The notes under the pieces were generated by a model. That model worked only from the letters and a program-made list of their open reading frames with translations. It was not told where the DNA came from and did no database searches. From assembly GCA_021162815.1 (NCBI GenBank), contig JAGGXW010000006.1:15081-79080 (forward strand): DNA of 64,000 bases. Direction: 5' to 3'. Within the stretch, counting starts at the first letter, position 1, and each line of letters starts with the position of its first letter. The position numbers were made by a program, and so were the translations under genes. Positions 2,869-34,756 of this stretch are shown here, in pieces. The DNA comes from Thermoplasmata archaeon. Lineage in GTDB: Archaea; Thermoplasmatota; E2; UBA202; JdFR-43.

Positions 2869-5058
2869 TTACTTCCATTTTTCAATGATTTTTCCATTCT
2901 TCAAAGAATATATAGATGCCAGAACAAGAATTGAGCCAATGCAGGATACTGTAAGCATGAAAAGCGCCAATGTTATGAACTGGGTTATCATTTCGTATTC
3001 CATTAAAACAATGGGTATACCACCTCCTATTAAAGCTATTGTTGCCTCTGCTAAGGATGGTGTTTTTCTTGTGAGTGCTATCTTAATTGCCTGCAATCCA
3101 CTTTTATTCTCTATTTCTTCTCTAACTCTTTCTGTAATATGAACTGCAAAATCTATTCCAACTCCTATCGCTATGGAAACAACAGTTATTGTAGATATAT
3201 TCAGAGGAACATTAAGGAGTACAAGCAGAGCAGGTTCCCATATTAAAAGCAGAATTATTGGAGTCATTGTGAGGGTCGCATATCTAAATGATCTGAATAC
3301 AAGGAGAAGACACAGGTAAACGAGGAATAAAGATATGAAAGTAAAATTCATTTGCTGGCTCATGAGCATCTGATTTAATTCAACAGTGAGAGCAGCGATA
3401 CCTGTTATATTATATATTTTCCCGTATCCATTTAACTCCCTATTATATTGAGCTATAACCTGATTAATTGAATTAACACTTCTTTTAGTTTCTTTAAGAG
3501 GCATTATTGGAGAGTCAACATATAGTAGCGTCTTACTGTTATTATTTCCATCTATCATCATCCTTCGATATTTTTCAGGTATTTTTTCAAAAAGGGTAGC
3601 AGCCTCCTCCTTTGTTTGAGGTAGTCTTCCAAAATTCATTTTTTTGAGGATATCTGTGATGGAATATACTGTTGTATTTTCTACCCCAACATTTATTATC
3701 TTTTCAAGTTCATCTATTTTTTCAAGCAGAGTTGGTTCAAGTAAGCCGTCTTTCTTTCCGCTGTCCACATATATAACTCCTGATTGACCGGCATGAAATT
3801 TGGTTGAGTACTCGTGCATTAGAACATTACTCTCCATTTTCTGGGGCATCATCTTCCACACAGATGATTCGATGGAAATCTTCGGAATAGTGGATACAGA
3901 TGCTATGGAAACTATGACAATAAGCAATATTATATGCTTTCTGTACTTGGTGAGATTAGCCAGAGATTTCCATTCAAGCACATATTTTTTACTAGGCTTC
4001 ATCACAAGAAGCATGGCGGGAACAAGTATCATGGTCGCTATAAATGAGTAAAGAACTCCAATAAGGAACGCTATACCCATGCTGGATATAGGAGGCATGC
4101 TTGAGGAGAGTAAAGAGACGAAGCCGACGAGAGTTGTGATGGTGGACAGAAAAACCGCCTTTCCAGTATTATTTATCGTTTTCTTTATTGCCTCCATTGG
4201 AGGCATTTTCAATTCCATAAAATAATTCACCATATGCAATGCATAGGCAACACCGAGAGAGGCAAGAAGTGGCAAGACAGCAACAACAGTCGGAGGAAAT
4301 TTTGTATCCATCATGCCAAGAGTGCCGAAAGTTAAAACCACTGCATATATGACGGGAGAGATGGCAATAAACACAGTTTTTATATCCCTGTGGAAAGCGA
4401 AAAGTACGAGTACTATTAAAAGCAGTGATAACATCCCAACCCCATATATCCTATCCATTATCCAGTGAACTGTTTCTGTGTACATGGTTACTAGGCCAGT
4501 GGGAACAGCCTTAAACCCTTCTGCAGATTCCGATAGAGGATATATTTTTTCATTTAAAAGTTCATCTGCATTAACATCCTTTTTTGTTGTTACAATTATG
4601 ACAGCGTTTTTATCATCATGACTGATGAGCTTGTATTTTATTTCATCCGGTATGAGTTTCATAAGAAAATCCGCATATTTTTGATTATCCGGTATCTTAT
4701 CCTTTCCAAAGGGGAGGTTGGCGTTTGTATCCCTTACCAAAGAAGCTATGCTTGTGGTATAGATAACATTATCTGAGTCATCTCTGGTGGGATTTATGGC
4801 TTCCTCCATTGCATTCATTTCTTTGAGATGAGATACAGATGAAAGATTTTCTCCGCTTAAATAAATCATAAGTGTATCTACTGGCCACTGGTGCCTTATC
4901 TCATTCAATACAATTACGCTCGGCTGGTCTGATGGCATATATAATTCAACATCTGAGGTTATCTCAATATGTATGGCGTTTACTGCTATAACCAGAGTTA
5001 TTAATGTAAAAACAATTATTGTAAGCTTGGGCTTCCTCATCAACAAATCGTAATGCAT
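2869..5058 (-). CDS. RND-superfamily exporter, MMPL/SSD family (12 TM with two large extracytoplasmic loops)
   Basis: 729 aa. Two blocks of about 6 TM helices each follow large hydrophilic loops, which is the MMPL/HpnN-like architecture. The start may be the internal Met at 5040. Confidence 0.65.
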   Translation of the reverse strand: MHYDLLMRKPKLTIIVFTLITLVIAVNAIHIEITSDVELYMPSDQPSVIVLNEIRHQWPVDTLMIYLSGENLSSVSHLKEMNAMEEAINPTRDDSDNVIYTTSIASLVRDTNANLPFGKDKIPDNQKYADFLMKLIPDEIKYKLISHDDKNAVIIVTTKKDVNADELLNEKIYPLSESAEGFKAVPTGLVTMYTETVHWIMDRIYGVGMLSLLLIVLVLFAFHRDIKTVFIAISPVIYAVVLTFGTLGMMDTKFPPTVVAVLPLLASLGVAYALHMVNYFMELKMPPMEAIKKTINNTGKAVFLSTITTLVGFVSLLSSSMPPISSMGIAFLIGVLYSFIATMILVPAMLLVMKPSKKYVLEWKSLANLTKYRKHIILLIVIVSIASVSTIPKISIESSVWKMMPQKMESNVLMHEYSTKFHAGQSGVIYVDSGKKDGLLEPTLLEKIDELEKIINVGVENTTVYSITDILKKMNFGRLPQTKEEAATLFEKIPEKYRRMMIDGNNNSKTLLYVDSPIMPLKETKRSVNSINQVIAQYNRELNGYGKIYNITGIAALTVELNQMLMSQQMNFTFISLFLVYLCLLLVFRSFRYATLTMTPIILLLIWEPALLVLLNVPLNISTITVVSIAIGVGIDFAVHITERVREEIENKSGLQAIKIALTRKTPSLAEATIALIGGGIPIVLMEYEMITQFITLALFMLTVSCIGSILVLASIYSLKNGKIIEKWK

Positions 5059-5095
5059 GCCTCAGACCCCTTTTCCTTTTAATTTAATAATATAT

Positions 5096-6238
5096 TTAAA
5101 CATGCCTATTCTTTTTCAGGAATATAAGAACTGCAAGTACTATCACAACAAATACGAATTCAAAGCCCGGCGTGCTGCCGCCCCCGCCGTTGCCTCCCTC
5201 AACATTTACCGTGATTGTGGCTGTTGTTGATGCTCCAAAGTTATCCATAACAGTGAGAGTAACTGTATATGTGCCTGCTTCAGTGTAAACATGGCTTGGA
5301 TTTGGTTGAGTGGAGTTGCTTCCATCTCCGAATTGCCAGAAATATGATACAACATTTCCATCCTTGTCATCCACATTGCTTTTGAAAAGAATATTGGTAC
5401 CTGCTTTTGGCTGAGGTGGTTCAAAGGAGATAGTAACAGTTGGAGGAGTATTTGTGAAATTTGAATATTTGTAATCTTTGAGCTGAAAGTCAAGATCCTG
5501 ACTGCCCCCTATGTCTTTTATGCTCTTTATCATTCCCACACTGCCATCCCAGAATACAAGAGTGTTGTTAAAGGGTATCATCTCCCCAAATGGATTATAA
5601 TCTGATTTTATTATGTAGATATCCCCCTGCCTGCTGACGCACTCAAATGAGAATGTAACAGGAGATGTCTGCTTCATGTCACCAAAATAAACTGTCGCAT
5701 TACTTCTGGCAGTCCATTTTTCTTTAACATCAACTGGGAAATTCATGAAGTCAAGAGGAGGATAATATTCTATGGTTACACTCATCTCCCCGCTTGGCAT
5801 ATTTGGTATTGGCAAGTTAGTGCTTGCATTCATGGTGATATCATTTTTAACAACTTTAATACCATCCACAGAGAAGTAAATATAACCATGTGCTGTCATA
5901 TTGTATGTGCCACTGAAACTCTGCTTCTTTCCACCAATCTGTCCTTCAATCAGAATTGTACCTGATGATGATGCTGTGAGTTTTGTTTTGTATGACGGTA
6001 TGTTTCCACCATTAACAACCACCATTTCAACATTCACAACATCAAGCCTTATATTCATGTCGTCTGTATCAATTTTAACATTTGCACTCATGTTTCCATA
6101 TGTTATGTCCTCATTGACAGAATAGCTTCCGCTATAATTCCAGTAATCCCCAATACCCCAGTTTGGCTGCTGAAGAGATGCATTGGCAACCGGCATAATA
6201 AAGGCAAAGACAACCAGCAAGGCTATTTTGATTTTCAT
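5096..6238 (-). CDS. secreted cell-surface protein with PKD domain and C-terminal TM anchor
   Basis: Signal peptide. PKD-like motif FGDGSNSTQPNPSHVYTEAGTYTVTLTVMDNFG. Gly-rich linker, then a hydrophobic C-terminal anchor. Many N-x-S/T sequons. Adjacent and co-oriented with the RND exporter. Confidence 0.6.
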   Translation of the reverse strand: MKIKIALLVVFAFIMPVANASLQQPNWGIGDYWNYSGSYSVNEDITYGNMSANVKIDTDDMNIRLDVVNVEMVVVNGGNIPSYKTKLTASSSGTILIEGQIGGKKQSFSGTYNMTAHGYIYFSVDGIKVVKNDITMNASTNLPIPNMPSGEMSVTIEYYPPLDFMNFPVDVKEKWTARSNATVYFGDMKQTSPVTFSFECVSRQGDIYIIKSDYNPFGEMIPFNNTLVFWDGSVGMIKSIKDIGGSQDLDFQLKDYKYSNFTNTPPTVTISFEPPQPKAGTNILFKSNVDDKDGNVVSYFWQFGDGSNSTQPNPSHVYTEAGTYTVTLTVMDNFGASTTATITVNVEGGNGGGGSTPGFEFVFVVIVLAVLIFLKKNRHV

Positions 6239-8401: not shown

Positions 8402-10230
8402 TTTTTCCTCCTTATTGCCTTTTCAGGACATACCTGCACACAATATCCACAGCCTGTGCAGAGAGATTCATTTATCTTTATCTTATCTCCCTCCCTGTAA
8501 AATGCAGGACATGCAAATTCATTTATGCATACATCACACCCAGTGCATTTATCCTGATCAACTTCAAAAACTATTTTTCTCTTTCTCCTCCTCAAATCCA
8601 GCAGTATGCATGGTGCCTTAAGTATAACAACAGCAAGTCCATCAAATTCTATAGCTCTACGGAAAGCTTCGATGGTCTTCTTCATATTGTATGGATTGAC
8701 AACTTCAACATGCTTTACTCCTATACCCCTCACAACTCTCTCTATGTCTATTTTCACAGCTTCATTCCCCATACCATCTATGCTATTTCCGGGATGGGGC
8801 TGATGGCCTGTCATTGCTGTCGTGCTGTTGTCAAGTATTGCAATAACGAAATTATGATTATGATGGACAGCATTTACAAGAGCTGGCAAACCTGCATGGA
8901 AGAAGGTGGAATCCCCTATGAAGGATATGATTTTTTTCTTTTCATTTGTAAGTGCAAAACCTCCTCCGCTTCCAACACTTGAACCCATGCATAAAAGAAA
9001 ATCAGCTGTTTTGTATGGAGGAAGTAAACCAAGGGTGTAACATCCGATATCAGTAGGATAGATCGCATCATCTCCAGCAACCTTCTTGACTGCATAGTAT
9101 GTAGCCCTATGAGGACAGCCAGGACAGAGTACAGGTGGGCGTGGAGTGGCTTCAACTGCATCTTCCTTCAATTCATATTCAATCTCAAAGAACTGAGCAA
9201 GTGTGGGATAAACAACCTGAGGAGAGTATTCATAAAGGGGGGTAAACCTTCCAAAACCCTTCCCATATATTGGTGTGGTAATTCCATTCTTCTGAGCCAT
9301 CACTCTTATCTCTTCCTCCATAAATGGTTCAAGTTCCTCAACAACAATCACCTTTTCAACATTATTTAGAAAATCCATTATCAATTTCTCTGGAACGGGA
9401 TAACTGAAACCCAGTTTGAGTATTTTTGCCTTTATTCCAAGATCATCAATTGCTTCCCTAACATAATTGTACGATGCACCTGATGTTATTATTCCATAAC
9501 TCCCTCCAAAATCCTCTATGAAATTGAATTTGCTTTTCTCCGCCATCTCCATAGCTCTTTCCATTTTTTCAAGCAAAACAGGATGCAGCTTTCTCGCAAC
9601 TTCAGGAACAGTAACATAGTCTCCAGGCTTAAAATCCCCCTTTCTTTTCTCCATTGGATATTCATTGAGTTCAACAACTCCCCTCATGTGAGAAACTCTT
9701 GTGGTGGTACGCAACAAAACAGGTAGTTTTAATTCCTCAGATATATTGAATGCCTCAATTGTCATCTCCTTTGCCTCTGCAGGATTGGATGGTTCAAGCA
9801 ACGGAAGGTTAGCAAATTTGGCAAATCTTCTGTTATCCTGCTCGTTCTGGCTTGAATGGGCACTGGGGTCATCTGCTGTAACAATCACATGCCCCCCATT
9901 GCAACCAACATATGCATAGGTCATGATGGCATCACTTGCCACATTAACCCCAACATGCTTCATGCATGTTAGAGTCCTCAGCCCCGATATTGCGGCTGCG
10001 GCTGCCATCTCTATGGCAACCTTCTCATTTGTTGAATACTCAAAATAGAATGGGGGCTCAATACCATTATTTTTCATGTATCTTGCCATGGCAGAGATGG
10101 AGTCTGCTATCTCAGATGATGGAGTTCCCGGATAAGTTGTTCCAAAATCCATTCCAGCCTCCAGCGCCCCTCTCGCTATGGCTTCATTGCCCAGCAATAC
10201 GGCTTTCCTATTTTTTTCCAGCAATATCAT
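8398..10230 (-). CDS. iorA: indolepyruvate:ferredoxin oxidoreductase subunit alpha
   Basis: 610 aa with a TPP-binding region and a C-terminal double [4Fe-4S] motif CTGCDVC...CPA / CTGCGYCVQVCP, as in IorA. Confidence 0.8.
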   Translation of the reverse strand: MILLEKNRKAVLLGNEAIARGALEAGMDFGTTYPGTPSSEIADSISAMARYMKNNGIEPPFYFEYSTNEKVAIEMAAAAAISGLRTLTCMKHVGVNVASDAIMTYAYVGCNGGHVIVTADDPSAHSSQNEQDNRRFAKFANLPLLEPSNPAEAKEMTIEAFNISEELKLPVLLRTTTRVSHMRGVVELNEYPMEKRKGDFKPGDYVTVPEVARKLHPVLLEKMERAMEMAEKSKFNFIEDFGGSYGIITSGASYNYVREAIDDLGIKAKILKLGFSYPVPEKLIMDFLNNVEKVIVVEELEPFMEEEIRVMAQKNGITTPIYGKGFGRFTPLYEYSPQVVYPTLAQFFEIEYELKEDAVEATPRPPVLCPGCPHRATYYAVKKVAGDDAIYPTDIGCYTLGLLPPYKTADFLLCMGSSVGSGGGFALTNEKKKIISFIGDSTFFHAGLPALVNAVHHNHNFVIAILDNSTTAMTGHQPHPGNSIDGMGNEAVKIDIERVVRGIGVKHVEVVNPYNMKKTIEAFRRAIEFDGLAVVILKAPCILLDLRRRKRKIVFEVDQDKCTGCDVCINEFACPAFYREGDKIKINESLCTGCGYCVQVCPEKAIRRKK

Positions 10231-33742: not shown

Positions 33743-33789
33743 TTTTTTTATAATTTATTTTGATACTAATCCTTCACACCTAAATGAAT

Positions 33790-34701
33790 TTAAGTTGCAT
33801 GTTTTTTGTAAGCTTGTTTAATCAAAGTCATTATATAATCTATATCTGAATCTGGTGTTATTATTATCTCCGTTCCCCAGCCCTTATATGATTTTGAAAC
33901 ATTTTTATAATCATCTAATTCATCTCTTTTTATCCATAGACGGGCCCGTATGTACTTTTTACTCTTAAGGAAATAAAACCACACAAACAATATTCTTTTT
34001 CCTGGGGAAAAACCTATGTAATTTTTAGTAGGACGAATTTCAATGTTTTCTCCCAGATTTAAAATTCTTTCTTTCAACTCTTCATAAATAGCAACTATGT
34101 CCTCAGGCATTTTTTGAAGATGCCTCTCCTCAGTATAAACCTTTATTTCCTTATTGACTTTTCTGATAACACTATTTTTTGAGCTAATTTTGGTTATGGA
34201 TTCACTTGTTTCAAGCGATTTTAATTGATTAAAAAGTACCGTATTATTTTCATATTTTTTCACTTCCCAGAGTTCAATTGGTAAATCTTTGAAATCAATA
34301 GCTTTTCTTTGATATTTTGTAAATTGTGGCGAAATGAATATAACCCTTGATTGAGACCAGTCAACATCACCTCTCCTTAAACTTTTTCCTTTACATTCGT
34401 TATATTCCAGAATAAAATCCGCTTTGTTATTCAACAAGAGGGAAAGATACGCATAACCCTGATCGATTACACTGAAACTTCTGTCTTTTTTGTATTCAAT
34501 AACCACAAAAGATTTTGTCTCATTATCAAAGGCAAGCGTATCCATTCTCAGGTCTCCTTTTGCAACTTCTGTTTTTACAAATTCCAAGCCAAATATTTCT
34601 TCCAGATTCTGTTCCGTCATTCTCTGTATTTCTTTCTCATTTTTAAAAGGCACTTCTCTTATTTGTTTCAATTTATCTTTCTCAATTTTAAATATTGGCA
34701 T
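33790..34701 (-). CDS. NucS/RecB-like PD-(D/E)xK nuclease-domain protein with C-terminal domain of unknown function
   Basis: N-terminal order GDLRMDTLAFD (motif I, Asp) - FVVIEYKKD (motif II, E-x-K) - VIDQGYAYL (Q...Y) with NucS-like spacing. The C-terminal ~110 aa (…YIGFSPGKRILFVWFYF…RARLWIK…) is a distinct conserved-looking domain. No homolog function known. Confidence 0.45.
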   Translation of the reverse strand: MPIFKIEKDKLKQIREVPFKNEKEIQRMTEQNLEEIFGLEFVKTEVAKGDLRMDTLAFDNETKSFVVIEYKKDRSFSVIDQGYAYLSLLLNNKADFILEYNECKGKSLRRGDVDWSQSRVIFISPQFTKYQRKAIDFKDLPIELWEVKKYENNTVLFNQLKSLETSESITKISSKNSVIRKVNKEIKVYTEERHLQKMPEDIVAIYEELKERILNLGENIEIRPTKNYIGFSPGKRILFVWFYFLKSKKYIRARLWIKRDELDDYKNVSKSYKGWGTEIIITPDSDIDYIMTLIKQAYKKHAT

Positions 34702-34756
34702 AATTAATCATCTTAATTTCGATATTTTTAAATAATTTTCTTTTTAGATGTTCTTC

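Follow-up and report, generated by a model that had tools for sequence, protein, structure and literature searches.

The gene analysed here lies on the minus strand at positions 33790..34701 of the window, a term used for the whole 64-kb stretch of DNA under study. It is a complete open reading frame, entered in the ORF list as 303 amino acids and a stop codon, which encodes a PD-(D/E)xK nuclease domain fused to a DUF5655 domain; PADLOC and the homologue search make the product a member of the family PDC-S18. The genes for the B and A subunits of topo VI are located upstream on the same strand, and a convergent gene for a C25 peptidase is located downstream. Reading of the sequence places an A/T-rich spacer of 55 bp (34702..34756, minus strand) between the topo VI A stop codon and the ATG of the nuclease gene, and this spacer possibly carries an archaeal promoter of the gene's own, suggested by an element resembling TTTAAAAATA that precedes the ATG by about 30 nt. 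At the other end, the C25 peptidase gene and the nuclease gene converge, and their stop codons are 47 bp apart (33743..33789, unstranded). A scan for promoters and terminators of the bacterial type, which is unsuited to an archaeon, produced nothing above chance at the nuclease gene.

All of the called genes within ±10 kb belong to Pfam families of the housekeeping type, in agreement with the preliminary description of a solitary gene, set between the C25 peptidase and topo VI genes with its own spacers. The 64-kb window contains no hsd genes and no second copy of the gene, and no methyltransferase adjoins the nuclease gene there.

The nuclease and DUF5655 domains

The N-terminal domain, residues 1-160 (34222..34701, minus strand), is a PD-(D/E)xK domain of the RecB/NucS type with an intact catalytic set, and is therefore predicted to be a nuclease. 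The first catalytic acid, D54, lies in the segment RMDTL (codon 34540..34542, minus strand); the (D/E)xK motif is formed by E69-Y70-K71 in VVIEYKK (34489..34497, minus strand); and the QxxxY motif of the RecB-type helix is Q81-G-Y-A-Y85 in IDQGYAY (34447..34461, minus strand). Alignment of the window protein with 74 homologues of 55-76% identity shows D54, E69, K71, Q81 and Y85 to be invariant, together with G82, and Y70 to be nearly so. The three RecB-family motifs reported in the preliminary description are consequently conserved features rather than chance matches.

The AlphaFold2 model of the protein, which was built on the same 74-sequence alignment and is of good confidence (pLDDT 87.6, pTM 0.81), has two globular domains joined by a linker of residues 161-185 (34147..34221, minus strand) that is disordered, with pLDDT below 50, at residues 164-173. 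The N-terminal domain of the model has the alpha-beta-beta-beta-alpha-beta core of the PD-(D/E)xK fold, with the D...(D/E)xK residues on strands 2 and 3 and a QxxxY helix, Q81, G82 and Y85 being located at the start of the helix that spans residues 78-91. A Foldseek search with the model aligns it with EndoMS (5gke_A, E 1.8e-4), the NucS/EndoMS proteins being the closest fold to the nuclease domain, and also returns YdhG (2oc6, probability 0.99) and MotA (1kaf, probability 0.95). The superposition on a RecB/NucS core and the complete catalytic set thus bear out the earlier call of a probable nuclease, as well as the two-domain architecture that had been read from the letters. Sequence searches against PDB chains gave nothing meaningful, the best E-values being 0.29 with the single protein and 0.94 with the 74-sequence profile, and NCBIfam and PHROGs contained no match to the window protein. 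A weak Pfam match to HSDR_N_2 covers the catalytic core (E 0.042). Residues 1-75 also match three PADLOC models of another candidate family, PDC-S11, weakly (E 2.7e-4 to 3e-3), a similarity of sequence which suggests that the nuclease N-terminus may be reused there.

The C-terminal domain, residues 186-303 (33793..34146, minus strand), had been left unassigned, with DUF5655-type entries named among the families to be tried, and it is to this very family that it can be assigned: residues 192-299 match positions 2-107 of the 109-position Pfam model DUF5655 (PF18899) with 58.8 bits and E 6.6e-16, the gathering threshold being 24 bits. The model shows an alpha+beta fold like those of YdhG/DUF1801, YjbR/MmcQ (DUF419) and the "double-wing" C-terminal domain of phage T4 MotA; this likeness is at the level of the fold only, with sequence identities of 8-16%. 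YjbR-type domains, which share the fold, have been proposed to bind DNA and occur in nuclease fusions (PMC7641849), and DNA binding is the leading guess for DUF5655. The acidity of the domain does not favour simple DNA binding, since in most family members it is mildly acidic, with a median net charge of -2.5 and a pI of 5.9. The best structural match, a YdhG-like protein, is moreover annotated as frataxin-like, so that the fold does not fix the ligand.

A profile search with the C-terminal domain finds 2589 clusters at 50% identity (E<=1e-3), and Pfam scans of those matches that differ in length from the window protein reveal the partners to which the domain is fused. It occurs at the C-terminus of GmrSD_N proteins that carry GmrSD_C, HNH or a HEPN domain; of AAA_21/AAA_15 (OLD/AbiEii-like) ATPases, AIPR and T5orf172 proteins; and of HSDR_N and HSDR_N_2 nuclease domains and a HAD hydrolase. 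In one further protein (P0185) it follows a sub-threshold match to NucS_C (21.2 bits against a cut-off of 24, E 3.1e-4). This recurrence at the C-termini of many architectures marks DUF5655 as a portable module, carried for the most part by nucleases and other effectors of defence. The window protein shares with the GmrSD, AIPR and T5orf172 fusions the placement of DUF5655 C-terminal to an effector, usually a nuclease, but its effector is a small PD-(D/E)xK domain of the RecB/NucS type, and not GmrSD/HNH, HEPN, a GIY-YIG-like domain or an ATPase. As for type IV (modification-dependent) restriction enzymes and other solitary nucleases of defence, neither PADLOC nor Pfam matches the window protein to Mrr, GmrSD or Shedu (SduA).

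Two other kinds of architecture were seen among the C-domain matches. One 368-aa protein (P0148) combines DUF5655 with a Cap15-type receptor domain for cyclic dinucleotides (Cap15_CD_rec), which links the module to signalling effectors like those of CBASS, and several proteins (P0121, of 628 aa, P0124, P0139 and P0129) contain two or three DUF5655 domains in tandem, some of them with no other Pfam domain toward the N-terminus.

The PDC-S18 family and its genomic contexts

The window protein matches the PADLOC model PDLC04945 of PDC-S18 with E 1.4e-114 and 380.5 bits, residues 1-298 being aligned with positions 1-301 of the 302 in the model, and two other PDC-S18 models match it at 1.8e-51 and 6e-11. 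PDC-S18 is a single-gene system in PADLOC, for which a match to the HMM is the sole requirement. The gene is accordingly a member of a catalogued family of defence candidates and is not a new kind of gene. The "phage defence candidates" (PDCs), 145 in number, were defined from genes that lie inside BREX, DISARM or type I restriction-modification (R-M) systems (Payne et al. 2024, bioRxiv 10.1101/2024.01.29.577857). The name "PDC-S18" appears in no paper of the literature searched, where DUF5655 is mentioned by a single, unrelated genome note, and neither term appears in the portion of the supplement text of Payne et al. 2024 that was available. The view that the gene is undescribed consequently holds for its biochemical function but not for its family, which is catalogued as PDC-S18 and whose plasmid-borne members are named "DUF5655 domain-containing protein" in RefSeq.

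The family is large. At least 6200 homologues of the window protein were found at E<=1e-3, nearly all of them about 305 aa long and of the same architecture, and at least 581 loci (a lower bound) are present in species-representative genomes. The hosts include Bathyarchaeia, Thermoplasmata, Methanobacteria, Archaeoglobales, Patescibacteria, Bacteroidota, Clostridia and others, and the distribution is patchy in both domains of life and extends to plasmids. Archaeal and bacterial copies are 50-76% identical, a conservation that is unusually high for a defence gene and counts against a role in defence.

Many members of the family are called "predicted transport protein" by JGI/IMG. This name is rejected here, because the model is that of a soluble alpha/beta protein of two domains and the Pfam matches include no transporter family; it has the appearance of a misannotation that has been propagated. 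Two copies in a hot-spring Leptospiraceae MAG, KatS3mg129 (L002:10001-10918 and L003:1861-2781), are interrupted in frame by 1 and 3 stop codons; at three of these positions the sister copy has Gln, and at the other the family has Arg. Both copies follow a gene for a 466-aa protein like an N6-adenine methylase, and they may be pseudogenised, perhaps toxic, nucleases or may reflect assembly errors.

The genomic context of the family was surveyed by calling ORFs in 80 of its loci and clustering the neighbours. No neighbour families recur other than HsdM (13 loci), HsdR (12) and HsdS (9), all counted within ±6 kb, and a YgjP-like peptidase (6). The hsd genes often adjoin the family gene on the same strand, either beside it or around it, as in the order hsdS-[gene]-hsdR at one locus (L049). 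Components of type I R-M systems lie within ±5 kb of 14 of the 80 family loci, against 0 of 80 for a control in which topo VI A served as the anchor (Fisher p 6.6e-5). This control is imperfect, because it relies on archaeal housekeeping genes for its anchors and because the test set itself supplied the Hsd queries. R-M families also have the highest PADLOC and Pfam counts among 142 immediate neighbours. The curated annotation of two Acinetobacter plasmids gives the orders hsdS-[gene]-hsdR and hsdM-hsdS-HNH-[gene]-PD-(D/E)xK-hsdR. On the Acinetobacter towneri plasmid pNDM_SCLZS30 (L095, 1399-9970), hsdS and hsdR of a type I R-M operon are separated by three consecutive nuclease genes, namely those for an HNH endonuclease, for the DUF5655 protein and for a further PD-(D/E)xK protein.

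A fixed partner gene was considered and rejected: the 142 immediate neighbours match 186 different Pfam families, which implies that no partner gene is obligatory. Over 80% of the loci in the survey, that of the window among them, adjoin no recognisable defence gene, which weighs against the defence reading. The type I R-M embedding on which the PDC call is based is a property of the family, and is not seen for the window copy.

Acquisition and divergence of the window copy

The GC content of the gene is 30.9%, against 39.2% for the window, and none of the 93 other family loci shares the topo VI or C25 peptidase neighbours, so that a conserved link to either of these genes is rejected. L096 and L119, two relatives from metagenomes, have a topo VI A with 86% identity to that of the window. 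In both, top6B, top6A and the C25 peptidase gene follow in the same order with a gap of about 0.5 kb between top6A and the peptidase gene, and neither topo VI locus contains a homologue of the nuclease gene; in L096 the gap (4731-5198) is occupied by a flavodoxin-like ORF of 155 aa. The genes that follow top6A in a third relative (L097) are unrelated ones. Together these results point to a lineage-specific lateral acquisition of the gene into the junction between the topo VI and C25 peptidase genes. With a flavodoxin-like ORF in one genome and the nuclease in the other, the junction itself appears to be a variable spot. No convincing direct or inverted repeats of the kind that would mark a mobile element flank the nuclease gene.

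The window protein has the length and two-domain architecture of PDC-S18, but it differs from the family in that it lies in no defence system and has a rebuilt, basic C-terminal domain. Two changes are apparent in the alignment. Residues 232-258 (33928..34008, minus strand) read SPGKRILFVWFYFLKSKKYIRARLWIK where the family has IANTNFVDIHPQKSQIKIWIN, a replacement specific to a subclade, and the near-invariant motif G-H-W-G-N-G-D-Y, present in at least 90% of the close family, has given way to K-S-Y-K-G-W-G-T-E (33868..33894, minus strand), so that KGWGTE stands at its site. Both changes are shared only by P0002 and by a copy in an Archaeoglobales MAG (L006), which with the window protein make up the subclade. 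About half of the conserved polar residues of the family's C-terminal domain are missing from the window copy, and the domain of the window type is basic, with a net charge of +5 and a pI of 9.3.

An artefactual frameshift was rejected as the source of residues 232-258, because no alternative reading frame restores the family consensus there. In the +1 frame the GHWGNGDY site can still be read as G-L-G-N-G-D, a possible trace of an old frameshift that was later compensated. Comparison of the window gene with the copy in L006 gives dN/dS of about 0.06 for residues 1-211 and about 0.10 for residues 211-303, and these low values indicate that the rebuilt domain is being kept by selection and is not decaying. 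The L006 copy (8768-9674), which at 76% identity is the closest genomic relative, can be read through only if a frameshift is assumed at about residue 211, and is either a pseudogene or affected by a sequencing error.

Proposed function and alternatives

The protein is most likely, with a probability of about 0.6, a soluble, two-domain, stand-alone nuclease that provides single-gene innate defence against invading DNA. The suggestion of a single-gene defence module made from the letters gains support in this way from the match to PDC-S18 and from the excess of R-M embedding over the controls. DUF5655 would act as the recognition or sensing module, binding DNA (possibly modified or foreign), a ligand or a protein signal, and would license or direct the nuclease domain to cut the invader. 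Since there is no cognate methyltransferase at the window locus, the host's own DNA would have to be spared either by target specificity, as in type IV systems, or by gating of the activity.

The strongest of the alternatives, although an unlikely one, is that the protein is a housekeeping or repair endonuclease which acts like NucS/EndoMS on mismatched, branched or damaged DNA, and that it lies beside topo VI because it takes part in DNA metabolism. NucS/EndoMS is the nearest fold to the nuclease domain, the sister architecture of P0185 joins DUF5655 to a possible NucS_C domain, the gene follows top6B-top6A by 55 bp on the same strand, the family is very highly conserved, and purifying selection is strong. 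The term "NucS/RecB-like" is appropriate for the fold of the nuclease domain, but membership in the NucS family must be rejected: the window protein has no Pfam match to NucS at E<=1, and the order of domains is reversed, the nuclease being C-terminal in NucS (PDB 2vld, 5gke) and N-terminal here. The N-terminal DNA-binding domain of NucS is absent, as is its clamp-binding tail, since the C-terminus KQAYKKHAT contains no PIP-box-like clamp motif. The linkage to topo VI is unique to the window, the host's closest relatives do not have the gene at that site, and its GC content is atypical. The patchy distribution of the family, its plasmid copies and its embedding in R-M operons are also difficult to reconcile with a repair role.

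Somewhat less probable is a selfish or addictive mobile gene, either a homing-type endonuclease or a plasmid-stabilising toxin, that spreads for its own benefit. Against this, the gene has no flanking repeats and no integrase, intron or intein context, it leaves the genes at its site uninterrupted, and no antitoxin-like partner recurs beside the family. The insertion of a single low-GC gene, the variable contexts of the family and the close similarity of copies in distant phyla would agree with selfish spread, as would the nonsense mutations in the Leptospiraceae copies if the nuclease is toxic. The family is present on 33 plasmid records, but 27 of the 33 plasmids are predicted to be non-mobilizable and the plasmid copies that were examined lie inside hsd operons; copies in phages are rare, with a count of 2 among 50,697 phage records and of 11 contigs in IMG/VR.

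The least probable alternative is that the protein serves type I R-M systems as an accessory subunit, for example as an added nuclease or a regulator, and needs the Hsd complex to act; the window copy would then be an orphan whose function is slight or absent. This is suggested by the repeated finding of the gene in the same orientation as hsdS and hsdR and between the two, and by the weak HSDR_N_2 match. Against it, 66 of the 80 loci have no hsd genes within ±5 kb and the window has none at all, the solitary copy of the subclade is under strong purifying selection, and the same C-terminal domain is found on many autonomous effectors.

Beyond the reading of a stand-alone defence nuclease, a broader proposal can be put forward tentatively, and it is rather doubtful in its full extent. 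DUF5655 might be a previously unrecognised sensor of infection or of the state of DNA that is common to GmrSD, AIPR, OLD-like ATPase, HEPN, GIY-YIG-like and PD-(D/E)xK effectors. The protein of about 305 aa would then be its minimal form, and would represent a new class of type IV-like stand-alone restriction enzymes that extends across Bacteria and Archaea, while the basic C-terminal domain of the window subclade would be a natural retargeting of the sensor.

By itself the result for the window is a modest one, that of a laterally acquired and somewhat divergent member of a catalogued candidate family. If the defence reading is true, the family would be among the smallest self-contained nuclease defences, with a range that runs from resistance plasmids of Acinetobacter to uncultured archaea. 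The analysis has as its most useful by-product the recognition of DUF5655 as a recurrent module of many defence effectors that are otherwise unrelated. Knowledge of its target would explain the whole set of these proteins at once, and the naturally rebuilt C-terminal domain of the archaeal subclade offers a ready-made comparison of specificity.
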